Positions 1 through 14,401 of a stretch of 64,000 bases of DNA are shown here, piece by piece. The translations under genes and the position numbers were made by a program. The stretch is from Pedobacter sp. (GTDB taxonomy: Bacteria > Desulfobacterota > Desulfuromonadia > Desulfuromonadales > Syntrophotaleaceae), in assembly GCA_050253415.1 (NCBI GenBank), contig JBFWJC010000002.1, forward strand, positions 741,567 through 805,566, in the 5' to 3' direction. Positions within the stretch are counted from its first letter, which is position 1, and each line of letters opens with the position of its first letter. The notes under the pieces were generated by a model that saw nothing but the letters and a program-made list of their open reading frames with translations, did no database searches and was not told the origin of the DNA.

Positions 1-2
1 GT

Positions 3-719
3 TGGCAGGCACCCTGCGAGTTGCAGACTCCTTCGGTGTCGCAAGGTGTCGGGGTTCTTTCCGACGCTCCGATTCTGCTTCAGGTGCGGGATCTGACTTT
101 TATGGGGTATGGGGATAAGCCGGTTTGGGATGGCGTTTCCTTTGACATCAGGCGCGGGCAGTGTGTCGTTATAACGGGCATGAACGGAACGGGAAAGACC
201 ACTCTTTTGCGAGTGCTTGCCGGGTTTCTCAAGCCGGGAAGCGGCAATATCCGGATCTTCAATGCCGAACCGGATCCCCGTTTGTTGCGTCGCAGGCTGG
301 GGTGCCTGTTTCAGAATCCCCATAAACAGATTTTTGAAAACACCGTGCGCGAGGAGATTGCCTTTCCCTTGAAACGATTCGGTTGGCCTTCGGAAGAACG
401 TACCGCCCGTATCGAAGAGACCCTACGTCTGTGCGGTATTGAAAATCTCATCGACGATTCGCCGCATAAACTCAGTTACGGTCAAAAACACCTGGTGGCT
501 ATTGCTTCGGTATTGGCACCTGCTCCGGAGATGCTTTTAATGGATGATCCCTTTGCCGGTCTTGACGGTGCGCGCCAGCGGGATGTGATGAGGGTTCTGG
601 CCGACTGGAACAGGGAACAGGGAGTCACCTTGGTGATGACGTCGCACGACCCCGATCAAATTCCGGTCTTGGCCGACGGTCATTTGCATATCGAAGGGGG
701 CCACATTGGCTGGCAATAG
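3..719 (+). CDS. ECF-type transporter ATPase (EcfA/CbiO family), 5'-truncated by the window edge
   Basis: Walker A GMNGTGKT, Q-loop LFQNP..QIF, signature LSYGQK, Walker B LLMDDP, H-loop SHD. The frame is open from base 3, so the true start is probably upstream (possibly the second domain of a duplicated ATPase). Confidence 0.85.
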   Translation, partial: WQAPCELQTPSVSQGVGVLSDAPILLQVRDLTFMGYGDKPVWDGVSFDIRRGQCVVITGMNGTGKTTLLRVLAGFLKPGSGNIRIFNAEPDPRLLRRRLGCLFQNPHKQIFENTVREEIAFPLKRFGWPSEERTARIEETLRLCGIENLIDDSPHKLSYGQKHLVAIASVLAPAPEMLLMDDPFAGLDGARQRDVMRVLADWNREQGVTLVMTSHDPDQIPVLADGHLHIEGGHIGWQ

Positions 720-1407
720 TTTTTTGCGTATGCACGGGGCGTTGGCCCATGGCCAGCGTCGAGACGACGGCCCCGAAAAGTCCGACAGGGGGCTGCCCTT
801 GCCGGTGGGTGTCAAGATGCTGCTGGCGTTAACCCTTTCCTGTGGGGCTTTTGTGGCCCGTACCGGAACATTTCTCGGGGGACTTACCGCCGTCAATGCG
901 CTGGTCTTTTTGCTGCTCCGCCCACAGGGCCTGTCCTGGTGGCGGCAAGGGAGATATTTTCTGGTTCAATCCTCCACCGTCATGGTGCTTTATATTATTC
1001 GGTTCCGATCTCTGTCAGGAGTATGGGACGGACTCTTGATTTCCTGGCAGCTTTTTCTGGCCTTTTGGCCGACCATGGTTTTCGCCAAAACCACTTCGCA
1101 AACGAAGATTGTGCGTGCCATGAATCGCGTCATACCGAGCCGTATGTCGTTCGTGCTGGCCACCTGTCTTAAATTCGCGCCGCACTTGCTGGAAGAAGTG
1201 CGGGACATTTACGAAGGGCAGGTATTGCGCGGTGCCAGGATCCTGCCTAAAGATCTGGTAAAACCGTCGAATTGGCCCGACCTTATGCATTGTGTTGTAG
1301 TGCCGGCCGTTGTGCAGGGGATGGCTCTGGCCAGCAATATTGCTCTGGCGGCGCGTGCACGCGATTTTGGACTGTACCGCAGGCGTACCTGTTGGCCTGG
1401 GGAATAA
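706..1407 (+). CDS. ecfT: ECF transporter transmembrane component T (EcfT/CbiQ family)
   Basis: Multi-TM protein with coupling-helix motifs Q.LRG and ALAARARDF; TTG start after AAGGGGG; overlaps the ATPase gene. Confidence 0.75.
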   Translation: MAGNSFLRMHGALAHGQRRDDGPEKSDRGLPLPVGVKMLLALTLSCGAFVARTGTFLGGLTAVNALVFLLLRPQGLSWWRQGRYFLVQSSTVMVLYIIRFRSLSGVWDGLLISWQLFLAFWPTMVFAKTTSQTKIVRAMNRVIPSRMSFVLATCLKFAPHLLEEVRDIYEGQVLRGARILPKDLVKPSNWPDLMHCVVVPAVVQGMALASNIALAARARDFGLYRRRTCWPGE

Positions 1408-1435
1408 TTTGCCGGCTCCCAAGGAGTTTTGTCGC

Positions 1436-1990
1436 ATGGTCAAGTCGTTTGTGGCGCGTTTTTCAGACAGTTTTCGCTTGCCTCTCAAGGATGCCTTGTT
1501 TCTTGGTTTTTGCGCTGTGTTTGCGGTGCTGGTGCGGGTTGTCCTGCGACTGCATCTGAGCATCTCCGGGCACGCCATGATTATCAAGATTTTCTTTTTG
1601 ATGTTGGGCAGGGCGAGCACTCCCTGTCGCTACGGTGCCAGTTTTACGGCGCTGCTGGCTGGGACGGCAGCCATGTTTCTCGGGTTTGCCAAGGCTGGTC
1701 CATTTATAGTCGTCAAATACCTGATGGCGGGTGTGATTATTGACCTTTCGGCCTATTTCCTGCCGGTACTGTTTAGCAGCTATGTCTTGTGTGCCCTGGT
1801 GGCGGCAGTGGCATCGTCCACCAAGTTCGCTACCGCCTACGCAGTTAATGCCATGGTTGGTATGGATCCGGTGGTAAATATGCAGCGATCCCTTCTGGAA
1901 GCGACGGGTGCAGTGATTTTTGGCGTCATCGGTGGTTTGCTGGTGCCGATGGTTGTGCGACGTCTCAAGGCTTACGGCGTTATTCGATAG
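1436..1990 (+). CDS. Putative ECF substrate-specific (S) component
   Basis: About 184 aa with 5-6 hydrophobic helices, directly after ecfA-ecfT. Start moved to ATG 1436 behind AAGGAG (1421-1426). Confidence 0.65.
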   Translation: MVKSFVARFSDSFRLPLKDALFLGFCAVFAVLVRVVLRLHLSISGHAMIIKIFFLMLGRASTPCRYGASFTALLAGTAAMFLGFAKAGPFIVVKYLMAGVIIDLSAYFLPVLFSSYVLCALVAAVASSTKFATAYAVNAMVGMDPVVNMQRSLLEATGAVIFGVIGGLLVPMVVRRLKAYGVIR

Positions 1991-2030
1991 GCAGAGAACA
2001 GGGCAGCCTGCGAGCTGCCGGGAGTGAGTA

Positions 2031-2774
2031 ATGATGAAAATTCTTGTATGTATCGACGACACGGATAATCTCGAATCACGCGGCACCGGTGATCTGGCGA
2101 CGGAACTCGCCGAAGAACTCGAAAATCGTGGTTGGGGGCGCAGTAGCTTTGTGACCCGTCATCAATTGCTGGTGCACCCCGATGTGCCTTACACGTCGCA
2201 CAATAGCTCCATGTGTTTTGAGGCGGAGATCGATCCTGCTTATCTGGAGTCGCTGATTTCCTACGCCGGAGAGTATCTGGAGAGAGAAAGTGCCACCGGT
2301 TCCGATCCTGGCCTGTGTGTTACTGTCTTGGAACGCCTGGCGGAACCGCAAGCGATGGTAGATTTCGGGCGCAGTGCCAAAGAAACGGTGCTTAACAAAA
2401 AAATGGCCTATGACCTGGCAGAGAAGTTAGGTGTGCACCTTTCCGAGCATGGCGGTACCGGGCAGGGCGTGGTCGGTGCATTGGCCGGTATCGGCCTGAG
2501 GATGAGTGGCAAGGACGGGCGCATGAAAGGCTGGTTGAAAATCAGCACCGATAACGGGCTGGCCCGGGTAGGCGATATCTTGGATGAGGTAGATCTGCGG
2601 GGTGTTCGCACCATGGCCGGCGAGGTGCTTGGCCACGAAGAAATCGTAGCCGTTGATGACAAACCGAAAGCGGTCATGGTCGATGGTGGCACTTATTTGA
2701 TGGTGTCGCCGGTGGATAATGGTGACGGGGTACGCTGGCGCACCACTCCGCGGCAGCAACTCAAGCGGTTTTGA
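2031..2774 (+). CDS. TiaS-like protein (N-terminal catalytic region of the agmatidine synthetase family only); function unknown
   Basis: Motifs IDDTD, PYTSHNS, SDPG and GQGVVGALA parallel TiaS GIDDTD, PYKTRGN, NPG and GRGxIGALA. At 247 aa it has no OB or Zn-ribbon region. Confidence 0.65.
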   Translation: MMKILVCIDDTDNLESRGTGDLATELAEELENRGWGRSSFVTRHQLLVHPDVPYTSHNSSMCFEAEIDPAYLESLISYAGEYLERESATGSDPGLCVTVLERLAEPQAMVDFGRSAKETVLNKKMAYDLAEKLGVHLSEHGGTGQGVVGALAGIGLRMSGKDGRMKGWLKISTDNGLARVGDILDEVDLRGVRTMAGEVLGHEEIVAVDDKPKAVMVDGGTYLMVSPVDNGDGVRWRTTPRQQLKRF

Positions 2775-2784
2775 GGAGGACGCC

Positions 2785-2988
2785 ATGTGGCATAGCAATA
2801 AACACGGAGAACGCGAATTCCGCCATGGCCAGGAAGCCTATAGCCTTGCCGCGGATCAAGCCGGGGCTTGCCATCACTTTTGCCCCGACGTGGAGGAGGA
2901 ATGGGCTACCGATGACGAGCGTTCCTGCTACAACTGCCGGCTAAGACGCTGGACAGTTGCCTCATTCCTTTGCATGCGGCCAGCCTGA
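2785..2988 (+). CDS. Small Cys-rich hypothetical protein (67 aa)
   Basis: ATG 2785 behind a strong GAGGAGG RBS; C-x3-C...CYNC-RLRRW...C motif; fills the operon gap. Confidence 0.7.
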   Translation: MWHSNKHGEREFRHGQEAYSLAADQAGACHHFCPDVEEEWATDDERSCYNCRLRRWTVASFLCMRPA

Positions 2989-3017
2989 TCGTTGTTATGA
3001 ACCATATAGGGGGATCC

Positions 3018-3833
3018 ATGTACACAAGACTGCTGATGGCTGTAATAGTTATGCTGCTGGGCGCCGGGTGGTCGGCGGCGGAGGATTGGGTTCAGGAAAG
3101 TCCGGGACAAAAAGCATACTACGACGCAGATGGCAACTTGGTACGGGTGCTGCTCGACACGGATGGCGACAAAAGGTTCGAAACCGAAGAACTTTACGGG
3201 GGGCGGCGTCTTTCCCGGCGCGAAGATCGGGACGGAGACGGCGTCTGGGAGCGCCAGTTCTCCTGGCAGAAGGATGGTTCGGCCATCCTGGTGGAGGACC
3301 GGGGTAAAGGGGCCAGGCAGACAACCTGGTTCGATTCCCGGGGTACCATGATTAAGGTGGAAAAAGATAAGGATCGCGACGGATGCCCTGAAACCACCTG
3401 GCATTATGAAAGGGGAGTGTTGCGGGAGGTTGTCAAAGCCCGTGGTACCTGGTTTTATAAGGATGGCCAGATGATTCATGCCGAAATCGATACAGATCGT
3501 GATGGCCGGATCGATCGTAAGGAATATTATAGGCAGGGTCATCTGGATCGCGCAGAGGAGATGAATGCTTCCGGCAAGGTCCGCTGCGTGTGGACCTTTG
3601 ATACAAGCGGCAGGCCGTTGCGGGCTGAAGAGGATGCCAACGGCGACGGGCGCAGGGAGACCACCCGCGTTTATCAAAAGGATGGCTCCCAGAGCATGAC
3701 CGTGGATGCTGATGGAAACGGTACACCCGAACTTCGAGAACATTATTCGGCAAAAGGGCGGATGATCAGTCGCGAAGAAGATCTGGACGGCGACGGTGTA
3801 TTTGATTTGCGCACCGGACGCGTTAAGGAGTAA
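3018..3833 (+). CDS. Secreted/periplasmic repeat protein with multiple DxDxDG (Ca-binding-like) loops
   Basis: Signal peptide MYTRLLMAVIVMLLGAGWSAA; DTDGDK, DRDGDG, DKDRDG, DTDRDG, DANGDG, DADGNG, DLDGDG; AGGGGG RBS before ATG 3018. Confidence 0.75.
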   Translation: MYTRLLMAVIVMLLGAGWSAAEDWVQESPGQKAYYDADGNLVRVLLDTDGDKRFETEELYGGRRLSRREDRDGDGVWERQFSWQKDGSAILVEDRGKGARQTTWFDSRGTMIKVEKDKDRDGCPETTWHYERGVLREVVKARGTWFYKDGQMIHAEIDTDRDGRIDRKEYYRQGHLDRAEEMNASGKVRCVWTFDTSGRPLRAEEDANGDGRRETTRVYQKDGSQSMTVDADGNGTPELREHYSAKGRMISREEDLDGDGVFDLRTGRVKE

Positions 3834-3838
3834 GGAAC

Positions 3839-4543
3839 ATGCAGAGCTGGGTTGCTTTTATGGAAAAAGCCGGTCCCATCGGGATCACTATTCTTTTCTG
3901 TTCGGTGATCGCACTGTTTATCATCATCGAACGGGTCCTGGCCTACCGGTCGCTCCGGTTGAAAGACCCGCGCCTGTTTCATCGTTTGCGCAAACGGGCG
4001 CAAGAAGGTCAGTTTTCCGAGGCCGCCACCATGGTCAGGGATGAGCGCCATCCCTGGGCGGTGGCCATGACAGAGGTTCTGGCACGCCTTGACAGTAAGA
4101 CCCGCGCTACCGGTCGCACCGAGCTGGAAAAAACCTTCGCCCATGCCGCGACGCGCGAAGTGCGCAAGATGGAACGCTTTCTCCCCACCCTGTATCTTAT
4201 CGCCAGTATCTCGCCGTTGCTCGGTCTGCTTGGCACGGTGGCGGGCATGATCAAGGCTTTTCAGGCCATTGAAAACCTCGGCGGTAAAGTCGATTCATCG
4301 GTGCTGGCGGGGGGGATATGGGAAGCGATGTTGACCACTGCTCTTGGCCTCGGGGTGGCTATCCCGGCCATGGTGGCGCATAACTACCTGCAAGGTAAAG
4401 TGCATGCCATGGTGGCCGATATGAAGGAAGAAACCGGAGTTTTTCTCGACGCCCTCGAAGATACCGGGCAGCTCGGAGTCAACAAGGATAAAGGTCTGGC
4501 TTCGGTTCATTCCGTGCCCGGTGCTGGCAGGGAGGCTCGATAA
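3839..4543 (+). CDS. exbB: ExbB/TolQ/MotA family proton channel
   Basis: SPLLGLLGTVAGMIKAF and AGGIWEAMLTTALGLGVAIPA motifs. Confidence 0.9.
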   Translation: MQSWVAFMEKAGPIGITILFCSVIALFIIIERVLAYRSLRLKDPRLFHRLRKRAQEGQFSEAATMVRDERHPWAVAMTEVLARLDSKTRATGRTELEKTFAHAATREVRKMERFLPTLYLIASISPLLGLLGTVAGMIKAFQAIENLGGKVDSSVLAGGIWEAMLTTALGLGVAIPAMVAHNYLQGKVHAMVADMKEETGVFLDALEDTGQLGVNKDKGLASVHSVPGAGREAR

Positions 4544-4944
4544 TGGATATCCCGGTTCGCTCCCAGACGACGGGGTTGAACCTGACCCCTCTTATCGATA
4601 TCGTATTCCTGCTGCTGGTTTTTTTTCTGCTTACCACGCAATTTATAGAGGAAGACGGCATCGGTGTGCGGCTGCCGGCGGCCACCGCCAGCACTACCCG
4701 CGAGAAGGACGAGATTGCGGTGGCCATCACGCGTGATGGGAAGTTGTTTGTCGCAGGTCAGCCACTGCCGTTATCCGACCTCGAGCAGAAGCTGCGCAGC
4801 CTGCTCGGGGCTGACACAACGGTTGTTATCCGCGGAGACCGGGATGTCCCTTTGCAGACAGCGGTTTCTGTCATGGAGCGATCCAAGAAAGCTGGGGCAG
4901 TGCGTATTGTCGTTGCAACGCTTGAAGAAGCAGGCTCGCCGTGA
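4543..4944 (+). CDS. exbD: ExbD/TolR family protein
   Basis: LNLTPLIDIVFLLLVFF motif; IRGDRDVP; 1-nt overlap with exbB. Confidence 0.9.
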   Translation: MDIPVRSQTTGLNLTPLIDIVFLLLVFFLLTTQFIEEDGIGVRLPAATASTTREKDEIAVAITRDGKLFVAGQPLPLSDLEQKLRSLLGADTTVVIRGDRDVPLQTAVSVMERSKKAGAVRIVVATLEEAGSP

Positions 4945-5681
4945 AGACCTCTCGCACATGGATGGCCCTGGGCACATCTCTCACTATACATATAGGCCTG
5001 GTGCTGGTCCTCGGTATGGGATTGATGCAACCCCATCGGGTGGTCAATCGCATAGAGGTCAATCTCGAGGGGGCCGCAGTACCCAGCAGGCCGCCGGGAG
5101 TGCAAGCTCCGTCGCCCGTTGCCGGTCCGGAAATGCCTAACTCCGCATCCCTGCCGACGTCGACGTCGGTCGCTCCGCATCTGTCTTTGAAGGCACCTTC
5201 TGTCGTTGCACCGGCTCCGGCCAATTTCGATGATGATGGAGCGCTTCCGCCGCCGGTTGCCGGAGGGGTGCCTGGGCCCATCGGTGTACCTCTGCATGCC
5301 GTGAGTGGGGGCGGCATGGACGGGGCGGGTTCGGGTAGCGGTCCCGGTGTAGCCGGAGGTGGGCAAGGTCGGCAGGGAGCAGGACCTTCATCCGCATTGG
5401 CCGGCTATCTCAATGCCATAAGGGCCCGCGTGGATGCCGCTAAGCGTTACCCTCAGATGGCCCAGCAGCGTCGCCTGGAAGGAGTTGTTGTCGTAACCTT
5501 CCGGTTGACCTTCGATGGTCGATTAATGGGTGAGCCTCTGGTCACCAGGAGCTCAGGTTCAAAGCAGCTCGATAGGGCCGCGTTGCTGGCGGTGCGACGT
5601 GGTGCTCCTTATCCTTCCTTTCCATTGAATCCGAAGGATATGAAAGCGCTCGAAATTCCGGTGAAGTTTTTCCTGCGCTGA
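4941..5681 (+). CDS. tonB: TonB family energy transducer
   Basis: N-terminal TM with SxxxH (SLTIH), Pro/Gly-rich linker, C-terminal YP..A....EG.V.V.F...SSG...LD.AA domain. Confidence 0.85.
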   Translation: MKTSRTWMALGTSLTIHIGLVLVLGMGLMQPHRVVNRIEVNLEGAAVPSRPPGVQAPSPVAGPEMPNSASLPTSTSVAPHLSLKAPSVVAPAPANFDDDGALPPPVAGGVPGPIGVPLHAVSGGGMDGAGSGSGPGVAGGGQGRQGAGPSSALAGYLNAIRARVDAAKRYPQMAQQRRLEGVVVVTFRLTFDGRLMGEPLVTRSSGSKQLDRAALLAVRRGAPYPSFPLNPKDMKALEIPVKFFLR

Positions 5682-5715
5682 GCAGGGGGGCTTATCTGTG
5701 AGTCGGTTAAACTGG

Positions 5716-5744
5716 AAAATCCGCAATTAATTGCGGATTTTTTT
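5716..5744 (+). terminator. Intrinsic terminator after tonB
   Basis: Perfect palindrome AAAATCCGCAATT/AATTGCGGATTTT ending in a T-run. Confidence 0.75.
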
Positions 5745-5834
5745 GTTTAATAGAGAGACAAGTAGCGGATTTTTCGTATGCTATGGACATAAGCGTCAAC
5801 ACGCTCCCCAACTTCTCTAGCGAAGGGCTAAGGC

Positions 5835-7079
5835 ATGGGAAAGCATGCAGCATCCACTCTGGTGGGGATGGACGAAAATGTGCAGTTACCGGTAGAGAGT
5901 CTGCCGGCGCAGCACTGGGATGTGATTATTGTCGGAGCAGGACCGGCGGGCTGTGTTGCGGCCATAGAACTGGCCGGGATGGGGCACCGCGTATTGCTGG
6001 CCGACCGGGATTGGTTTCCGCGCGATAAAGTTTGCGGTGACGGACTTACCCCGGGTGCCATCCGGATTCTGCGGCGTTTGGGGCTTTATGATACGGTAAG
6101 AAAAGTTGGACGACACTGCTCGGAGATGAGTGTCTTCAGTCCGGCACATGTTCGTATCGATGTGCCGGGAGACTATATAACCGTAAGGCGCAAAATTCTT
6201 GATCAGCTAATGGTTCGCAAGGCACTTGCTGCCGGGGTGACTTTTGTTCGGGGCACGGCCGATATTCTGGAATCGCAAGCTGATAGCAAAGCAAACGTGC
6301 ACTTTGGTGAAGGTCAGGCGGTGCACACCGCAGAATGTTGTCTGTTGGCGACCGGAGGACGGCTGGCTCTGGCGCAAAGAGCGGGCCTGGTGACGCATCC
6401 AGTTGCCAGCGGAGCAGCGGTTCGTTGTTATATTCGCTCACGTATATCTCTTGATCGACTGGTCGTTGCCTGCGAACGCAATATTCTGCCTGGTTACGCC
6501 TGGATCTTTCCTGTCGACAAGGATCTGTTCAATGTTGGCTGTGGTCGCTTCATGTACGGCCGCAACGAAAAGCATGTCAGCCTTCGAAAAGTCTTTGCGG
6601 CTTTTGTCGACGAATTTCCTCTGGCCCGGGAACTTTTGAGCCAGGGCGCAATCGAAACGCCTTTGAAAGGCGGTGTTCTTCGCAGTGGCTGGCAGCAGGC
6701 GGGACCAATGGCCCGCGGGCCTTTTTTAGGCATGGGGGAAATGGTCGGTACAACCTCGCCTTACACCGGTGAAGGTATAGGCAAGGCCATGCAAAGTGGT
6801 GTTCTGTCAGCCAGGCTTGTGCATCGGTGTCTTCTTAAAGGGGAGATGTCCGCATTGCGGCGTTACCCGGAATATCTTCAACAGCTTGGGGGGTTGCATT
6901 ACGAAGGGTTCAAGCGTACCCGTCGTTGGTTTTTGCAGCCCTGGTTGGTCGACTTTTTTGCTCGTCGCATAAACAGAAGTCCCTACCTGTACGAAACTTT
7001 CAAAGGTATTCTCCAGGAAAAAAACGACCCCGCGCAGGTCTTCTCCTGCCGCGGGGTTTGGCGTTCTCTTTGGCACTGA
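5835..7079 (+). CDS. Geranylgeranyl reductase family FAD-dependent oxidoreductase
   Basis: DVIIVGAGPAG, FPRDKVCGDGL, GYAWIFP, SPYTGEGI motifs; start uncertain. Confidence 0.85.
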   Translation: MGKHAASTLVGMDENVQLPVESLPAQHWDVIIVGAGPAGCVAAIELAGMGHRVLLADRDWFPRDKVCGDGLTPGAIRILRRLGLYDTVRKVGRHCSEMSVFSPAHVRIDVPGDYITVRRKILDQLMVRKALAAGVTFVRGTADILESQADSKANVHFGEGQAVHTAECCLLATGGRLALAQRAGLVTHPVASGAAVRCYIRSRISLDRLVVACERNILPGYAWIFPVDKDLFNVGCGRFMYGRNEKHVSLRKVFAAFVDEFPLARELLSQGAIETPLKGGVLRSGWQQAGPMARGPFLGMGEMVGTTSPYTGEGIGKAMQSGVLSARLVHRCLLKGEMSALRRYPEYLQQLGGLHYEGFKRTRRWFLQPWLVDFFARRINRSPYLYETFKGILQEKNDPAQVFSCRGVWRSLWH

Positions 7080-7114
7080 TACCTTGGCGTCATCTCCATT
7101 ATCTTCTGATGCTC

Positions 7115-8245
7115 TCAGTGAAGAGAATTTCCCTGATTCAATGAACGTATCTGGGCTTCCGTGTAGTCGTCAAACCAGTATGCTTGCGGATTACGTTTGA
7201 ACGCCAGGAGTTCATCGAGTCTCTGTCTGGAGTCTGCCGGGCGGTGATAGCGGAAAAAAATCTGATCCTTTGTCAGGCCTGCAACCTCAATTTTACCGGT
7301 AACATGAGACATGGCGTACCGACTGCGGCGAGCGAGCCCGGAGCAGGCTTTGAGGGCCTCGGCAAAAACTCCATAGCCTTTTTCGATGGGGACGGTGTAG
7401 GCGGCATTGCCTTCAGTGGGGCGGCATTGGAAAACATAGTAGGGCGCAATGCCGAGATATGACAATTCGTTGAGCAACTTCGATAAAACTCTGGGGTTAT
7501 CATTGACGCCTTGGATCATGGGCGTCTGATGCATGATACTCACTCCGCATTTTTGTATCTGGTCCAGTGCGCGCCGTGCTTCGGGTGTCAGTTCCCTGGG
7601 GTGATTGAACTGCGCCATAAGGTAGATCCGTCGATCAGACAAACTATGGGTTTTGAACATCTGCAGAAGTTCCGGATCATCCAGAATGCGAAAAGGATTA
7701 AAGGCAAGCATTTTGGTGCCTATGCGAATGATCCGCACGTGATCGATAGCGCGCAACTGCTCGATTATTTCCGTCAGTTTGTGCGTTGAAAGGAGCAGAG
7801 GATCCCCTCCTGTAACAAGCACATTATTGATTTCAGGGTGTTTGCGAATGTATTCCAACCCACCGGAAACATCCCTTGCCACTTCCTGATTGTCCTCCAT
7901 AAAAAGGCGCTTGCGAAAACAGAACCTGCATAAAGCTCCGCAGACATCGCTCACCAGCAGTACCGCCGTGTCGGCATATTTGTGCTCAAGTCCCGGAGCT
8001 TTGGCATAATGAGATTCGCCGGATGCGTCAAGAGCCCCCCAGGGTTCAAGCTCGTCCGTACTGGGAATAACAATGCGGCGAATAGGATCCTTTGGGTCAT
8101 CCCAGTCGATGAGTGATTGGTAGTACCCGTTAGTCCGGAAAGCATAGCGTTCTTCGACAACGCGCAGATTCTGACGCTGCTTATCGCTCAATGCTTCCAG
8201 TTCAGGAATCTGATCAATGCTTGTGATGTACTTCCTGTAGCTCAT
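7115..8245 (-). CDS. KamA-family radical SAM enzyme (aminomutase-like)
   Basis: GLEHKY, CGALCRFCFRKR (CxxxCxxC), TGGDPL, FNHPREL, GVNDN, PYYVFQC; AAGGAGGA RBS. Confidence 0.85.
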   Translation of the reverse strand: MSYRKYITSIDQIPELEALSDKQRQNLRVVEERYAFRTNGYYQSLIDWDDPKDPIRRIVIPSTDELEPWGALDASGESHYAKAPGLEHKYADTAVLLVSDVCGALCRFCFRKRLFMEDNQEVARDVSGGLEYIRKHPEINNVLVTGGDPLLLSTHKLTEIIEQLRAIDHVRIIRIGTKMLAFNPFRILDDPELLQMFKTHSLSDRRIYLMAQFNHPRELTPEARRALDQIQKCGVSIMHQTPMIQGVNDNPRVLSKLLNELSYLGIAPYYVFQCRPTEGNAAYTVPIEKGYGVFAEALKACSGLARRSRYAMSHVTGKIEVAGLTKDQIFFRYHRPADSRQRLDELLAFKRNPQAYWFDDYTEAQIRSLNQGNSLH

Positions 8246-8838
8246 GCGTCCTCCTTTCCCATAATATTACCGGCTCAAAATGGGGGCAGGTGTACCTTGT
8301 CCTCGAGATAATCGAGCATATAAGGCTGGGCCTTGAAAATAGGCACTGCACACCGGCAAAGGGGAATTCGTGGTGTTGGTAGAATGAAAACTGCGGAACG
8401 TTTTTGAAAGTGGCTTACTGATTCGAGGTGTTGTGTTTAATTGCGATCCCAGCGTTTTTATGGCTTGATTTCAGCTATTGTGGCTGATTTTGTTTTATAG
8501 AGCATAACACGGTTTTTTAAGTTAATCAACATCTTGCTTCTATCTTGTTTTTCAATATATCACTTGCTGAAATTGTCAGAAAAATAAGCCTAATTTTATT
8601 TTTTATCGGTTTGCCTGATAAAAATATATTTTATGTAGCCTTTTTTGGATTATGCATACACATGTTGGGGAATGGTGACCTGGGTTTGGTATTTATTTCG
8701 ATGGGTTGTGCAAAGGGGGTAGGGTCCTTCACTTTTTTGCGAGATATTTTCAAAACAACAAAATTAGACACCAAAATAGGTTCTCCAGGGTTATTTTTGG
8801 TAAGTAATGGTAAGGTATTTATTATTTTATGAAGCCTA

Positions 8839-8868
8839 TTGACCATAAAAAACTTAGAGTGATATAGT
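8839..8868 (+). promoter_or_regulatory. Putative sigma-70 promoter for the sRNA candidate
   Basis: TTGACC (8839-8844), 18 nt, then TATAGT (8863-8868) with extended -10 TG at 8860-8861; AT-rich upstream. Confidence 0.55.
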
Positions 8869-8873
8869 GCTAA

Positions 8874-9033
8874 ACACTAAATGTGCGACGGGTATTTGTG
8901 GGTCGCAGATCGAGTGTTTGACAGTCTCCCCGGCCACTATTCCGAATGTGGCTTTTTTCTCCTCCTCCTGATATCTGGTCGTTGCTTACGGCCCCCTGGC
9001 CAGCGCGCTTATCAGCGGCGCTGGCTTTTTTTT
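8874..9033 (+). ncRNA. Candidate ~160-nt small RNA with CU-rich anti-SD tract
   Basis: Bounded by a promoter and an intrinsic terminator; three internal hairpins; single-stranded CTCCTCCTCCT at 8959-8969. Confidence 0.5.
8999..9033 (+). terminator. Intrinsic terminator
   Basis: GCCAGCGC (8999-9006) / GCGCTGGC (9018-9025) stem followed by 8 T. Confidence 0.75.
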
Positions 9034-9299
9034 GTTGAGATCCTAAAAGACATGTTCTCTCATCGGGTCACATTGACTTTCCCTAAGTAATATAATTTAT
9101 TGTTTCAACGTGGGCACGTTTGTTATAGTGCCCCGGCATTCGGTCTCAGGCAATTATGCCCAAGTCTGGAACTGGTGCGTTGTTTCACGTTTCGTGCATT
9201 GTGTTTAGCGCATCGTGCCGGATGCGTTAGGTTTGACATCAGTCATGCAAACTTTGCGATTCGGCAGTTTAACTCAGTTATTACCATAGGGAGTATGCC

Positions 9300-10106
9300 A
9301 TGGCCGGCAGACATGAGGTGCAGAACAAGTTACAGGGTGAAACCTTGGGACGTAAAGGTTTGATGAAAAAACATGATCATATTCAGCCGATGCGTTTGGT
9401 TCCGGATTTACAGGTGGTGAAGATCGGAGGGCATGGCACCATCGATTTTGGGCGTGAGGTTGTCATGCCGCTGCTTGAGGAGATTGGCGAACAGGTTAAG
9501 AACCATAAAATGCTGGTGGTAACCGGCGGAGGGGTCAGGGTGCGCCACATTCTCGATGTGGGCATTGACCTCGGTATGCCTACGGGAGTGCTTGCGAAAC
9601 TGGCTAGCAAAATTAGTGAACAGAATGCGGAAATGGTTGCGTTGCTTCTTTCAAAATGGGGTGGAACGCATATCGACAGCGGCGACATTCTTGAACTGCC
9701 TATGTTGCTTAAGCTGGGGTTCTTGCCTGTAACCCATGGGACTCCTCCGTATGGACTGTTTGAACATCCGCCGGAGTTCGGGTTGATACCTCCTCATCGC
9801 ACCGATACGGGGGCCTTTTTGATGGCAGAAGTTCTCGGAGCCAAAAGTTGCATCCTGGTGAAAAACGTGGATGGACTTTACACTGAAAATCCTACGGTCA
9901 ATCCGGATGCCGAATTGATCGAAGACATAACCGTGGATGAGTTAATCGCGATGGATATGGAGGATATGGTAATGGAAAGCAAATTGCTGTATCTGCTTAA
10001 GGATGCAAACAGTCTCAAAGAATTGCGAATCGTCAATGGCCACAAGCGTGGAAATGTGGAAAAAGCACTGCGTGGAGAAAAGGTCGGCACGATCATCCGT
10101 GTCTAG
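9300..10106 (+). CDS. Molybdenum storage protein (MosA/MosB)-like member of the amino-acid/uridylate kinase fold
   Basis: LQVVKIGG, TGGGVRVRH, LGMPTGVLA, QNA, PPY, IPPHRTDTGAFL, KNVDGLYTENP and VNG...ALRGEKVGTII match my recollection of the Azotobacter MoSto subunits; AGGGAG RBS. Confidence 0.75.
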   Translation: MAGRHEVQNKLQGETLGRKGLMKKHDHIQPMRLVPDLQVVKIGGHGTIDFGREVVMPLLEEIGEQVKNHKMLVVTGGGVRVRHILDVGIDLGMPTGVLAKLASKISEQNAEMVALLLSKWGGTHIDSGDILELPMLLKLGFLPVTHGTPPYGLFEHPPEFGLIPPHRTDTGAFLMAEVLGAKSCILVKNVDGLYTENPTVNPDAELIEDITVDELIAMDMEDMVMESKLLYLLKDANSLKELRIVNGHKRGNVEKALRGEKVGTIIRV

Positions 10107-10205
10107 GTATGATTTGTGTTGAAGCTCCTGCTGCCTCATGGTATAGCTCAAACATCATGTATCTACCGCTACTGAAGAGCGGTATACCCTAGACAGGAGG
10201 CAACA

Positions 10206-10415
10206 ATGAGTGGAAAGATTTTTTATCGTGAGCGGCGTAAGGTCGTCGACGGAGGCAAGCAGCCGCGCTATGTGCTGGTAGCTGTGGCGGATGTCAATCT
10301 GAAGGTATTCGGAAAGCACCTGCGGATGAGTGAAATGAAAGCCATTGCTGAAGCCACCGGTGCCGAGTTGGTGCCACTGCCGCGCGGCAGCAAGCACGCG
10401 GAAGAAGAAGAATAA
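10206..10415 (+). CDS. Small hypothetical protein (69 aa)
   Basis: AGGAGG RBS, ATG start, followed by a strong terminator; protein-like composition. Confidence 0.7.
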   Translation: MSGKIFYRERRKVVDGGKQPRYVLVAVADVNLKVFGKHLRMSEMKAIAEATGAELVPLPRGSKHAEEEE

Positions 10416-10435
10416 ACAAGCCGTTTGTCAGCTAT

Positions 10436-10477
10436 AAAAAAACAGCCTCCGCCTTTATGGGCGGAGGCTGTTTTTTT
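10436..10477. terminator. Bidirectional intrinsic terminator
   Basis: A7-CAGCCTCCGCC / GGCGGAGGCTG-T7 between convergent genes. Confidence 0.85.
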
Positions 10478-10513
10478 ATGGCGAAGACCATGACCTTTGT
10501 TCTCTGGAGAGGT

Positions 10514-12073
10514 TTAATCCCAGGAATCGATTTTCATGGTGCCGTGGGTGGCAAGGTTTTGCTGCATGCGGAATACCCGGTCCAGCAGGTGCGGTTCGTG
10601 GCCGACTCCGCGGGAGAGGCAGTCTTGGCTGGCGCGGTCGAAATAATCTTGCAGCAGAGGGCGATAATCCGGATGAGCGCACTTGTCGATGATCAGTTGT
10701 GCGCGATCGCGGGGGCACAACCCCCTCAAGTCGGCCAAGCCCTGTTCGGTGACCAGGACGTCGAGGTCGTGCTCCGTATGGTCGACATGGGGGACCATCG
10801 GTACTACACAGGTGATGCCGGTGGGGTCGGTTTTGGTGGGGCGGACCGATGGGGAGTGCATGATCGACAAAAAGGCGTTGCGCAGAAAGTCGCCGGAGCC
10901 GCCGATGCCGTTGATCATACGCGTGCCCCCTACCAGGGTTGAGTTAGCATGTGCATACATGTCGAATTCCACCGGGGTGTTCATGGCGATTACGCCGAGG
11001 CGTCGGATCATCTCGGGGTTGTTGGCCAGTTGCTGCGGGCGCAACACGATCTTGCGCGTGTATTCGTCCCATTTGTTGTAAAACCGTTCAAAGCCATTGG
11101 CAGAGAAAGACAGGGACGTGGCTGAGGCATAATCCAGCTTTCCCGAGTCGAAAAAGTCGAGCATAGTATCTTGCAACACTTCGGTATAAACCGTCAGATT
11201 GCTGAAAGGACCTTTGACCAGGTCACCGACCACGGCATTGGCAATATTGCCGACCCCCGATTGCAAAGGCAACAAGTTAGCCGGAAGTCGTCCAGCCTTG
11301 ACCTCGGCCTGGAAGAAATCGAGAATATGATCGGCAATTTTCTGGGAGATGGCATCTGTTGCTCCCAGCGAGCGGCCTTTGTCAGGTTCCCGTGATTCGA
11401 CGATGGCGATGATCTTTGACGTGTCGCAGGGTACATAGGTGGTGCCGATGCGGTCGCCGACCCGGCTGATCAGGTAGGGCTGGCGATGGGGTGGCATTTC
11501 CGGAAGCACGATATCATGCAGGCCCTCGTAGGAGGGGATGGAGGTGTTCAGCTCGATGATAAGATGCTCAGCGGTTTGGATAATCTCAGGAGCGATGCCT
11601 ACAGATCCGGCCAGGATAATGTGGCCCTCCTCGGTAATGGCACTTGCTTCAATGATGCCGAGATCCAGTTTGCCCCCGAGGTCCTTGGTATAAAATCCGT
11701 AACCCAGATCCTGGGCGAACATGGAAAGGTGCTTGTCGTGCATGCGAATGCGACCGGAGTTGATCCCCTTCTGGATATTCTTGCCGCTCTGGTAAGGCCA
11801 GCGCCTGGCTATCATATCGAGGGAAGCCCAGCGGTCTTCCGTTTCGGTTCCGACGGAAGCGCCGATGAGCAGGTTGAAGCGCATCTTACCCTGAAGATTG
11901 TATTTTTCCACATAATCAGCCAGTGCTTTGGGAATGGCTTTGGGGTATCCGACGGGGGTGAATCCGGACCAGCCCAGGTTCATACCGTCTTTGAAGTGGG
12001 GAAGAACATCTTCAACGGACCGGATACGGTCCAATAGTTGTGGGCAGGCTATGCGGTCATGCAGGGTAGACAT
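10514..12073 (-). CDS. ato: Succinyl-CoA:acetate CoA-transferase (acetyl-CoA hydrolase/transferase family)
   Basis: SGFTPVGYPK, LQSGVGNIANAV, YTEVLQD, INGIGGSGDF, VTEQGLADLRG; ATG 12073 behind GAGGAG. Confidence 0.88.
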   Translation of the reverse strand: MSTLHDRIACPQLLDRIRSVEDVLPHFKDGMNLGWSGFTPVGYPKAIPKALADYVEKYNLQGKMRFNLLIGASVGTETEDRWASLDMIARRWPYQSGKNIQKGINSGRIRMHDKHLSMFAQDLGYGFYTKDLGGKLDLGIIEASAITEEGHIILAGSVGIAPEIIQTAEHLIIELNTSIPSYEGLHDIVLPEMPPHRQPYLISRVGDRIGTTYVPCDTSKIIAIVESREPDKGRSLGATDAISQKIADHILDFFQAEVKAGRLPANLLPLQSGVGNIANAVVGDLVKGPFSNLTVYTEVLQDTMLDFFDSGKLDYASATSLSFSANGFERFYNKWDEYTRKIVLRPQQLANNPEMIRRLGVIAMNTPVEFDMYAHANSTLVGGTRMINGIGGSGDFLRNAFLSIMHSPSVRPTKTDPTGITCVVPMVPHVDHTEHDLDVLVTEQGLADLRGLCPRDRAQLIIDKCAHPDYRPLLQDYFDRASQDCLSRGVGHEPHLLDRVFRMQQNLATHGTMKIDSWD

Positions 12074-13313: not shown

Positions 13314-14183
13314 TTAGTTGGTCAGCAGGGCGGGGGAGTTGGAGGTCAGCGCTTTGCGAAGTTTCTCCAAGGCATTTTTTTCCAACTGACGGATTCGCTC
13401 GCGACTGATACCGTAGTCGTCCGCAAGGGCCTGCAGGGTGCAGGGCTCGTCGCTAAGAATGCGATCCTCGACAATACGGCGTTCTCGTTCGTTCAGGTGG
13501 CACATGGCATCGTGGACGCGTGATGCCTTTAATTCTTTTTCCTGGTTGTTGATCAACAGATCTTCCTGGTTCTCACGTTCGTCAGGTAGGGAGTCGAGCA
13601 GGCTGAATCCCTCCCCTTCGATAAGGGTGGCATCCAGTGATGTGTCGCGACCCGCCATGCGTAGCGACATGTCTTCAACCTCTTTGTCTCTGACATTGAG
13701 TTCCAGTGCGATAGCCTGGGTGTCGTCGCCGCCGGTCAGGCGCTGTATGGTTTTTCGGGCCTGGTTGAGTTTGAAAAAGAGTTTTTTCTGGGCCTGGGTG
13801 GTCCCAATTTTAACCAGCGACCAGTTGCGAATAATGAAATTATGCATGTAGGCCCGAATCCACCAGACAGCATAGGTGATGAAACGCAAACCCCGTTCAG
13901 GATCAAATTTTTTCAATGCTTTCATCAGGCCGATATTGCCCTCTTGGATAAGGTCGAGGAGTTTCAGGCCATAGCCTCGGTATTCGTGGGCAATTTTGAC
14001 AACAAAGCGCAGGTTGGCGCAAATCAGACGCTGAGCTGCGTCAAGGTTGCCATGGACATGGTAGGCGTGTGACAATCGATATTCTTCTTCCTTGGACAGG
14101 ACTTCAAAGTCCCGGATCTGGGCAATGTAAAGTGACAGGCTGTCCGAAAGGACCGGTATTGGCAAGTTGCTCATGCGGGCCAT
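13314..14183 (-). CDS. rpoH: Heat-shock sigma factor RpoH (sigma-32)
   Basis: DLIQEGNIGLMKA, YAVWWIRA, RpoH box QKKLFFKL, ISRERIRQLE. Confidence 0.92.
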   Translation of the reverse strand: MARMSNLPIPVLSDSLSLYIAQIRDFEVLSKEEEYRLSHAYHVHGNLDAAQRLICANLRFVVKIAHEYRGYGLKLLDLIQEGNIGLMKALKKFDPERGLRFITYAVWWIRAYMHNFIIRNWSLVKIGTTQAQKKLFFKLNQARKTIQRLTGGDDTQAIALELNVRDKEVEDMSLRMAGRDTSLDATLIEGEGFSLLDSLPDERENQEDLLINNQEKELKASRVHDAMCHLNERERRIVEDRILSDEPCTLQALADDYGISRERIRQLEKNALEKLRKALTSNSPALLTN

Positions 14184-14205: not shown

Positions 14206-14232
14206 TTAGCACTCTATGGTGCCGAGTGCTAA
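14206..14232. promoter_or_regulatory. CIRCE element (HrcA operator) upstream of rpoH
   Basis: Exact TTAGCACTC-N9-GAGTGCTAA. Confidence 0.95.
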
Positions 14233-14401
14233 ATAGTTATATCAAATCTTGACGGTCCGTTCAACCCCGAATGGAGGCTGCAGCTTCACCTGCGTCGAGT
14301 TGACAGACGCGGGAGGAGGGCACATAATGGGCGACATTCATTCCCGTCTTTAGGCAACCCGACCTGCTTGTTTGCCTTCCCACCGACCAAAGGGGTTTTT
14401 C

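Follow-up and report, generated by a model that had tools for sequence, protein, structure and literature searches.

We describe a gene cluster at the left edge of a 64,000-nucleotide window from Pedobacter sp. (G000:C2:741567-805566, where G000 is the source genome and the window is the whole stretch of DNA analyzed). The cluster comprises a nine-gene operon, which begins just upstream of the window, and a neighboring gene for a TonB-dependent receptor. It is probably a two-membrane acquisition system for tungsten, and possibly also for molybdenum, equipped with a cytoplasmic processing module formed by a stand-alone TiaS-type kinase (TCKD) domain protein and a four-cysteine partner. More tentatively, we propose that this TCKD/Cys pair carries out a new ATP-dependent tungsten (or molybdenum) step between import and pyranopterin insertion, and that the receptor and the energy-coupling factor (ECF) transporter encoded with it would be the first outer-membrane receptor and the first ECF-type importer for this metal. 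The evidence consists of the gene content of the locus, the fold of the enzyme, the conservation and fusion of the pair, its co-occurrence with transporters, riboswitches in related genomes and a promoter box shared with a tungstate importer.

A preliminary description of the window had listed nine co-directional open reading frames (ORFs) on the + strand ending at a single terminator, and these were confirmed, coordinates included, with families assigned by Pfam and NCBIfam. In order, they encode the 3′ half of a fused double ABC ATPase (ECF A-A′; 3..719), an ECF T (scaffold) component (706..1407), a putative ECF S (substrate-capture) component of 184 residues (1436..1990), the TCKD domain protein (2031..2774, 247 residues), its four-cysteine partner (2785..2988, 67 residues), an exported DxDxDG (EF-hand/FG-GAP-like) repeat protein (2970, or from the ATG at 3018, to 3833), ExbB (3839..4543; PF01618, 109.5 bits), ExbD (4543..4944; PF02472, 106.6 bits) and TonB (4941..5681; PF03544 TonB_C, 56 bits). 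An intrinsic terminator at 5714..5743, a 13-pair stem followed by a T-run (TTTTTTTGTTT), closes the operon. The junctions, calculated from the ORF coordinates, are tight throughout: -14, +28, +40, +10, -19 (+29 from the ATG at 3018), +5, -1 and -4 nt.

The upstream DNA, examined as a stretch that we call L002, completes this picture. The first gene had been placed correctly, but the window edge cuts it: the whole fused ATPase gene runs from 14349 to 15719 of L002 (G000:C2:740915-742285) and encodes 456 residues. Before it lies the TonB-dependent receptor that had been predicted upstream (L002 12167..14092, 641 residues, with plug and barrel domains), preceded by its own promoter (12021-12050) and followed by a strong terminator (14129-14155). 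Because the receptor gene has its own terminator and a second promoter-like site follows (14219-14247, TTGACT-17-TATATT), the receptor gene is predicted to be monocistronic and the nine genes to form a separate, neighboring transcription unit. The ten-gene layout is kept in three related genomes, two of the same genus and one of the same family; in the family-level relative, LarC-LarB genes separate the receptor gene from the other nine.

The enzyme encoded at 2031..2774 scored 25.3 bits against the Pfam family TiaS_TCKD (PF22641), just below the cut-off of 27, and in a sequence search of solved structures it matched TiaS chains alone (E 0.004, residues 2-158), with the motifs IDDTD, PY.T..N, (N/D)PG and G.G..GALA..G kept in the alignment. 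An AF2 model built from an alignment of 34 diverse homologues reached a pLDDT of 94.4. Searched with this model, Foldseek placed TiaS on top (3amu, E 9e-12), and VIA-align superposed it on TiaS 3amt with a Z-score of 22.8 and a root-mean-square deviation of 1.8 Å over 155 residues at 25% identity, the next unrelated chains lying below Z 8; the structural alignment is limited to the TCKD domain, that is, the N-terminal 158 residues. The family conserves the motifs IDDTD, RHQL, PYTSHNS, SDPGLC and GxGVIGALAG, and Thr19 aligns with TiaS Thr18, in a column with 29 Thr, 4 Ser and 1 Ala among the 34 rows. Thr18 is the residue that TiaS autophosphorylates and the source of the TCKD domain name. Judged by its model, the protein has a genuine TiaS kinase (TCKD) fold. 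The remaining C-terminal beta domain (last 90 residues), folded alone, reached a pLDDT of 85.5.

Two more specific assignments were rejected. The protein is not a full TiaS: its 247 residues leave out the FLD, OB and zinc-ribbon tRNA-binding domains, and its match to NCBIfam TiaS (NF040849) reached 27.3 bits, with a cut-off of 600, and covered profile positions 1-154 of 422 only. The match to methanogenesis marker protein 11 (TIGR03280) was likewise partial, with residues 1-157 aligned to profile positions 132-283, and at 53.3 bits fell far below the curated cut-off of 255.8. The family to which the protein does belong is large and patchily distributed: 6011 of 8000 scored candidates passed at E ≤1e-3, a library clustered at 50% identity held 821 representatives at E 1e-3 and 174 at 1e-30 or better, and within the order 9 of 61 genomes carry a member. 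The closest named relative is Pcar_2393 of Syntrophotalea carbinolica, with 83% identity.

To place the enzyme in context we compared related loci, taken as the best 80 of 410 that were confirmed; many are kin, and the counts given here describe this sample. The loci span Geobacteraceae, Desulfuromonadales, Syntrophomonadaceae, Sporomusa, Clostridium, Pelotomaculum, Shewanella, Oceanospirillum and Alcaligenaceae, and further include Coriobacteriia, Chloroflexi, Kiritimatiellales and Leptospirales; neighboring genes were labeled by phmmer and checked with Pfam. The 67-residue cysteine-rich protein, for which Pfam and NCBIfam returned no family, proved to be a frequent companion: of the 76 loci whose sequence extends 260 bp or more past the TCKD gene, 42 have a homologue right next to it, and among family members of at least 275 residues in the sample at hand, 29 of 32 carry the Cys module fused to the C-terminus of the TCKD domain (16 recognized by regular expression, 13 by eye). 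Across 39 sequences, C29, C48, C51, C63, D35, E39, R54 and W56 are invariant.

Docking predictions for the enzyme and the Cys protein gave ipSAE values of 0.67, 0.78 and 0.73 (median 0.73), against 0.05 for the best control, with at least 92% contact agreement between runs and a partner pLDDT of at least 85. This mark is attained by 116 of 157 solved complexes and by 2 of 215 mismatched pairs, counts that are a rough guide because purpose-built alignments were used. In the predicted interface, the invariant acidic loop of the Cys protein (residues 36-44) would lie against R43, the Thr19 loop (17-21) and the YTSHNS region (54-61) of the enzyme, on what the model shows as its conserved face. The docking supports binding between the two proteins, short of proof, and together with adjacency and fusion it bears out the earlier suggestion that they form a conserved pair.

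Variations on the pair were seen in several lineages. In some Syntrophomonadaceae, three (or two) tandem TCKD paralogues stand behind MolBC-A-type transporter genes, and the last of them is followed by one Cys gene (L039 8332-10765, L061 8414-10768, L068 2946-4540). An HdrD-like CCG/4Fe-4S protein adjoins the pair in Sporomusa and Desulfoscipio, and in Clostridium magnum a DAO+BFD flavoprotein lies 3′ of the pair; it is also fused with TCKD-Cys in one 826-residue protein. The Cys module may thus have redox partners in these HdrD-like and DAO+BFD proteins (L043 10997-13060, L017 6690-8705, L037 11074-13898, P0134).

The company kept by the pair links it to transport. An ECF set stands beside it in 19 of the 80 loci, including clear orthologues of the fused ATPase, T and S components described here, and a homologous TonB-dependent receptor occurs in 20, so that the co-occurrence with ECF and TonB genes seen in this one operon extends to other genomes, and the lack of it that the preliminary description had named as a refutation is not observed. 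In a further 31 loci the pair is preceded by a set of FecCD-type permease, ABC ATPase and binding protein, never together with the ECF set. The nearest solved structure to the permease is HI1471 MolB (3.3e-71, versus 5e-50 for HmuU and ~1e-42 for BtuC), and that to the binding protein is HI1472 MolA (7.5e-28). Because it precedes the TCKD gene in these 31 loci, the MolBC-A-type set occupies the slot of the ECF transporter. MolBC-A is described, in the relevant part of PMC4031551, as a molybdate/tungstate importer. Overall, some transport part is present in 58 of 80 loci (45 of the 59 with at least 5 kb upstream), and no transporter or receptor was seen in 23 of 80, several of them on short contigs and 7 with a Moco (molybdenum cofactor) riboswitch.

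Genes of molybdenum and tungsten metabolism recur in these neighborhoods. Near stand-alone TCKD copies we found AOR, ThiF/MoeB-like, MoaE, MoeA and MoaA/C genes, TupA-like binding proteins, Porin_O_P (an anion porin), an amino-acid-kinase-family (Mo-storage-like) protein and formate dehydrogenase, and in a Kiritimatiellales locus MoeA-MoaA-MoaC lie directly 5′ of the receptor and the pair. A dedicated TonB gene lies 3′ of the system in three Gram-negative loci (L016, L024, L025). Surface proteins with Ig-like Big_5 or fn3 domains are frequent companions of the system, and in Gram-positive relatives (L033 2316-6920, L039 174-5238, L017 1046-6271) giant surface proteins with an SLH anchor come first in the riboswitch operon, together with small Ig-like proteins of the Big_5 type; they may serve to capture the same cargo at the cell surface.

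In its A and T components, the transporter of the locus itself fits an ECF module of the group I kind. The fused ATPase contains two ABC_tran stretches; it scored 285 bits against the cbiO subfamily TIGR01166 (cut-off 211.8) and 301 and 295 bits against the ECF_ATPase equivalogs, below their cut-offs of 315 and 330. The T component matched PF02361 (CbiQ) with 34.6 bits, above the cut-off of 25, and its orthologues adjoin the TCKD/Cys pair in related loci. The hydrophobic S candidate had no match in Pfam or NCBIfam, CbiM/NikM included; its closest Atlas cluster is labeled 'putative ECF transporter S component' (score 0.96), a Sporomusa homologue weakly matches PF09819 (1e-6), and its orthologues are conserved beside A and T genes in related loci. 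The ORF list of the nine-gene operon contains no binding-protein gene. In the receptor, the plug (PF07715) scored 80.1 bits and the barrel (PF00593) 113.3 bits, and its subfamily accompanies both importer types of the TCKD system in related loci. The DxDxDG protein has, by its translation, a signal-peptide-like N-terminus and seven D-x-D-G-D-type repeats, with a weak EF-hand_5 match and Atlas neighbors in EF-hand/DUF6802 clusters (0.93); its homologues were found, among the genomes and loci compared, in three close relatives only, and it is probably a lineage-specific periplasmic accessory.

Regulatory RNAs in relatives point more directly to the cargo. In Geomonas limicola, Rfam found Moco riboswitches (RF01055) immediately before two genes, those for the TCKD protein and the ECF ATPase. 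A covariance model made from seven TCKD/ECF-linked Moco RNAs and run over 87 loci gave 48 matches, and 23 of the 80 loci have a riboswitch on the strand of the TCKD gene, between -9 and +4 kb of it; in ten loci searched with Rfam RF01055, 17 further matches were confirmed at gathering score, the confirmed ones lying in 8 loci and including one of 85.5 bits in L033. The riboswitches precede the pair itself, a whole Big_5-MolBC-A-TCKD operon, or the ECF genes, with ECF orthologues directly behind the RNA in L022, L025, L029 and L034, and several genomes have the pair by itself, preceded by a riboswitch of its own and without an adjoining transporter. The P3 hairpin is missing from the four Rfam alignments inspected. 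A Moco riboswitch variant that lacks P3 is associated, in the pertinent passages of Regulski 2008 (PMC2408646), with tungsten-cofactor genes, and the same passages mention a riboswitch-controlled operon of S. wolfei that holds transport genes and 'genes of unknown function'.

In the source genome, the corresponding signal appears to be a protein-binding site. The preliminary description had raised the possibility of an operator upstream, and both promoters do carry a predicted one: a box, TCGyTATATTCC..ATAnCG, that overlaps the -10 element and resembles the binding site of ModE. At the receptor promoter it takes the form of an inverted repeat, TCGyTATATT-N-rATAnCG, over the -10 and is conserved in the genus. 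The ModE consensus is given as ATCGnTATATA-N6-TATATAnCGAT, with a similar site at G. sulfurreducens modDABC, in the section of Rodionov et al. (PMC545781) that treats it. Simple regular expressions for the box gave little, and we used core-motif scoring instead, against the 16 positions of the ModE core. The receptor box (C2:738607) and the operon box (C2:740804) each scored 13/16, the latter with consensus spacing, and they are the only sites of at least 13 in the 9.8-kb locus. Among 1500 random 480-bp windows, 7 attained 13 and 1 attained 14; of eleven other Mo/W-related upstream regions, one attained 14, that before wtpA.

A genome-wide view gave the same grouping. In the 4.1-Mb genome, the pattern CG[TC]TATAT-N6-11-ATA.CG has five matches versus one in controls, and three of the five sites are the two promoters here and a position ~90 nt 5′ of wtpA-wtpB-wtpC-wtpA (box at C3:83211), whose WtpA identification is secure (455.8 bits, cut-off 355). 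The box recurs in the related genomes, scoring 14 before the receptor gene in G004, 14 and 14 before the two units in G057, and 13 and 15 before the two units in G030; it scores 13 before the receptor gene of a Desulfuromonas metagenome-assembled genome (L044). A full-length ModE gene is present in the source genome (97.3 bits, cut-off 98.5, two TOBE domains). NikR and Fur boxes reached at best 9/14 and 11/18 in the promoter region. The remaining two pattern sites lie inside coding regions: G000:C1:669799 in the 3′-terminal part of a photolyase-like gene, ~45-70 nt 5′ of an unnamed 239-residue ORF, and C9:375 within an unnamed 358-residue ORF. Between promoter and start codon, each leader also has a short GC hairpin and, after it, TTTTAT (L002 12100-12128 and 14273-14296); the receptor-leader hairpin is kept in G004 and G057 and may serve as an attenuator or simply stabilize the 5′ end, and the fold of the leader RNA is not unusual (z 0.66).

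The source genome makes use of tungsten-type genes elsewhere. It has six AFOR_N matches and four RF01055 copies, all away from this locus and all preceding AOR-family genes (G000:C1:1369619, C1:1063628, C3:12346 and C1:727300; L093-L096, L106-L109). The alignment of the L093 riboswitch, the one inspected among these four, lacks P3, and one of the AOR genes is followed by a BtuB-like receptor gene (387 bits, L109) and a TonB gene.

From these observations we infer what the cargo is, which way it travels, that ModE is the protein binding the box and, in outline, the chemistry. The TonB-dependent receptor, driven by the ExbB-ExbD-TonB complex of the operon, would bring a scarce tungsten or molybdenum species through the outer membrane; the exported, Ca-binding-type repeat protein may help in the periplasm; and the dedicated ECF transporter, composed of S, T and the fused A-A′ ATPase, would import the species into the cytoplasm. 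There, a TCKD-Cys4 complex would spend ATP to convert the metal species or hand it over for synthesis of the tungsten or molybdenum cofactor. A ModE-type repressor may act on both units through the box overlapping the -10, as it may at wtpABC, while in other lineages the same genes would be governed by tungsten-type Moco riboswitches. As for the reaction, ATP could serve to activate tungstate, or its carrier, at an oxo group, followed by thiolate hand-over to the partner; this is a guess and the weakest step of the scheme. Processing of the cargo on arrival, as the preliminary description had put it, is a possible role of the enzyme, although the pair is not always accompanied by a transporter.

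Several points weigh against a tungsten or molybdenum acquisition system. We know of no ECF transporter or TonB-dependent receptor for either metal. The S candidate falls into no assigned family. The counts over the 80 loci are not independent, because these are the best of 410 and many are kin. The C-terminal beta domain of the enzyme has no fold match (best VIA Z 2.6, best Foldseek E 0.41), and none that is molbindin-like. LarB/LarC nickel-cofactor genes are conserved next door. The cobalamin or Moco riboswitch that had been envisaged upstream is absent: Rfam, run over positions 1-12000 of the window and the receptor leader, returned no riboswitch of any family at the locus, and no RF01055 match with E up to 5. 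The link to ModE is one of sequence similarity, and it has its own blemishes: the spacing of the receptor box is one base shorter than consensus, the full 22-position E. coli consensus, scanned over the genome, gave no significant excess (51 sites of at least 15 versus 25 in the reversed genome), and in that scan the receptor-promoter site scored 14, under the threshold of 15. In the order, 46 of 61 genomes have AFOR_N genes, among them 8 of the 9 TCKD carriers, and AOR is too common there for its distribution to discriminate. Lastly, the genome already encodes 4 ModA-type, 2 WtpA-type and 4 PBP_like_2 oxyanion-binding proteins; a further oxyanion importer is not obviously needed, so the cargo may be another species, such as chelated or thiolated tungsten or molybdenum, or a pterin.

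That last possibility leads to the most serious of the alternatives, which we nonetheless consider unlikely: that receptor and ECF transporter import a pyranopterin (Moco or the tungsten cofactor Tuco, molybdopterin, cyclic pyranopterin monophosphate or a breakdown product) from neighboring anaerobes, to be re-phosphorylated or re-activated by the TCKD enzyme. ECF transporters and receptors of BtuB size, such as the 641-residue one here, typically carry vitamins and cofactors; Moco riboswitches govern biosynthesis as well as uptake genes and would suit salvage equally; and the wealth of oxyanion importers in the genome favors a different cargo. TiaS chemistry acts on a pyrimidinone carbonyl, and the pterin kinase HPPK is among the weak fold neighbors of the TCKD model (Z 6.8-6.9), but the latter likeness amounts to the common ferredoxin-like arrangement, and pyranopterins are labile. 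Moreover, the interchangeable transporter of the 31 loci is closest to the oxyanion importer proteins MolB and MolA, the box is common to the wtpABC tungstate importer, and the pair often occurs without a transporter. Salvage of a nucleotide-containing cofactor is also less likely than uptake of a tungsten or molybdenum oxyanion or complex, because the alternative transporter of the relatives is closest to MolBC-A.

A different objection accepts the transporter as a carrier of tungsten or molybdenum and makes the TCKD/Cys pair a co-regulated regulator, or a modifier of RNA or protein acting on its Cys partner or a tRNA. TiaS, the sole characterized TCKD relative, modifies tRNA and also autophosphorylates; in the docking model the acidic loop of the partner enters the catalytic face as a substrate would; and 23 of 80 loci have the pair without an adjoining transporter. 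The protein has, on the other hand, none of the tRNA-binding domains of TiaS, its linkage to two importer types that are unrelated to each other is tight, and tungsten-type riboswitches lie directly 5′ of the pair, all of which makes such a role improbable. Nickel uptake for the divergent LarB/LarC nickel-pincer cofactor genes is very improbable. LarB (291.9 bits, cut-off 175) and LarC do lie ~2 kb upstream on the opposite strand, the adjacency is kept in G004 and G030, and group I ECF transporters for nickel and cobalt as well as TonB-dependent nickel uptake exist; yet Pfam and NCBIfam reveal no CbiM/NikM-type S component, the NikR-box match is poor, and the contexts examined among the 80 loci are never nickel-related, the informative ones being Mo/W-related. 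Least credible of all is corrinoid (B12) uptake. ECF-type B12 importers exist, and the receptor does match NCBIfam TonB-B12, but with 123 bits against a cut-off of 599.7; a much better BtuB candidate lies elsewhere in the genome (L109), and there is no cobalamin riboswitch here, nor did Rfam report one in the 17 loci, related or from this genome, that were scanned. Among the cargo classes named in the preliminary description, the riboswitches of relatives and the ModE-like box shared with wtpABC thus favor molybdenum and tungsten, whereas a corrinoid finds no support.

The surroundings of the cluster contain further features. Divergent from the receptor gene, on the minus strand at L002 8669..11870 (G000:C2:735235-738436), are genes for LarC (Ni_insertion), LarB and a 374-residue AAA_26/Pta-N-terminal-like protein, a trio that keeps its place next to the system in both G004 and G030. 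Downstream of the operon, the window encodes a geranylgeranyl-reductase-family flavoprotein (5835..7079, +; 151.6 bits, cut-off 158.8) and a KamA-family radical SAM aminomutase (7115..8245, -; 211 bits, cut-off 199.2), both found at the same position in G004. At 8501-9000 the G+C content is 0.37, versus ~0.55 around it, which may mark an island or an insertion boundary, and overlapping sub-threshold Rfam matches on both strands at 10327-10545 (Thr_leader, 30.9 bits with a cut-off of 55; sX6; psRNA14) suggest a palindromic or structured element.

Tungsten enzymes, namely the AOR family and formate dehydrogenases, have a central place both in anaerobes that live syntrophically or reduce metals and in the biocatalysis of CO2 reduction, and to our knowledge their metal is supplied only by oxyanion ABC importers and MoeA-type insertion machinery. 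The TCKD family is widespread and links a TiaS-type domain, presumably ATP-using, and a Cys4 protein with tungsten-type riboswitches and transport proteins of three kinds. This pattern suggests that a step has been missed, or that tungsten which is scarce or occurs in other chemical forms takes a different route. If this proves true, a pathway thought complete would be extended by one new class of enzyme and by two transporter specificities not seen before, the TiaS kinase fold would have a second, non-RNA function, and the production of tungsten enzymes in heterologous hosts could benefit. Culturable carriers exist in Syntrophotalea, Geomonas, Shewanella and Sporomusa. Searches of full-text literature found no receptor for tungsten or molybdenum, no paper describing the TCKD family or system, and no mention of Pcar_2393 or 'methanogenesis marker protein 11'; supplements lay outside their scope, and Fig. 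S4 and the gene lists of Regulski 2008 may hold such genes as hypothetical. Where the retrieved papers touch on neighboring topics, PMC13119186 concerns CbiMNQO and PMC13197769 concerns MoeA1/MobB/FdhD, rather than the TCKD system. New in the present analysis are the ModE-type box common to wtpABC, the two-unit promoter layout, the fusion count, the docking, and the lineage's own ExbBD-TonB and DxDxDG accessory.

The closest parallels to individual parts come from quite different systems. With TiaS, the archaeal tRNA(Ile2) 2-agmatinylcytidine synthetase (3AMT, 3AMU, 3AU7, 4RVZ, 5XOB, 3U02), the enzyme shares the TCKD fold, the motifs and a Thr at the position of Thr18, and the separate Cys4 module recalls the TiaS zinc-ribbon domain; unlike TiaS, it is bacterial, has 247 residues and no FLD or OB domain, and is found in a neighborhood of tungsten/molybdenum transport and cofactor genes with no tRNA context. 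The transporter resembles the group I ECF systems CbiMNQO and NikMNQO in its operon-encoded A, T and putative S components, CbiQ-type T, cbiO-type ATPases and lack of a soluble binding protein, but differs from them in an S candidate that does not match CbiM/NikM, fused ATPase domains, tungsten/molybdenum signals and the attached TCKD/Cys4 pair. Rodionov, in 2006, is said to have associated Ni/Co ECF systems with TonB-dependent receptors. TonB-dependent uptake of metals and cofactors, as by BtuB/BtuCDF, combines a plug-and-barrel receptor with ExbB-ExbD-TonB just as here, and TonB-dependent receptors for nickel, zinc and copper are known.

Among systems for the metals themselves, MolBC-A of Haemophilus influenzae (HI1470/HI1471/HI1472), a type II importer, resembles the FecCD set of the relatives and is absent from the operon described here; we know of no case in which it works with a TCKD/Cys4 pair or a TonB-dependent receptor. 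WtpABC, TupABC and ModABC share the regulatory signals, since the box also lies 5′ of wtpABC in this genome and the riboswitch of the relatives also lies 5′ of TupA-like genes, but they are type I ABC transporters with a periplasmic binding protein, and have neither an outer-membrane receptor nor a cytoplasmic enzyme. The cluster differs from every described tungsten or molybdenum system by its receptor, its ECF module and, above all, its TCKD/Cys4 pair.

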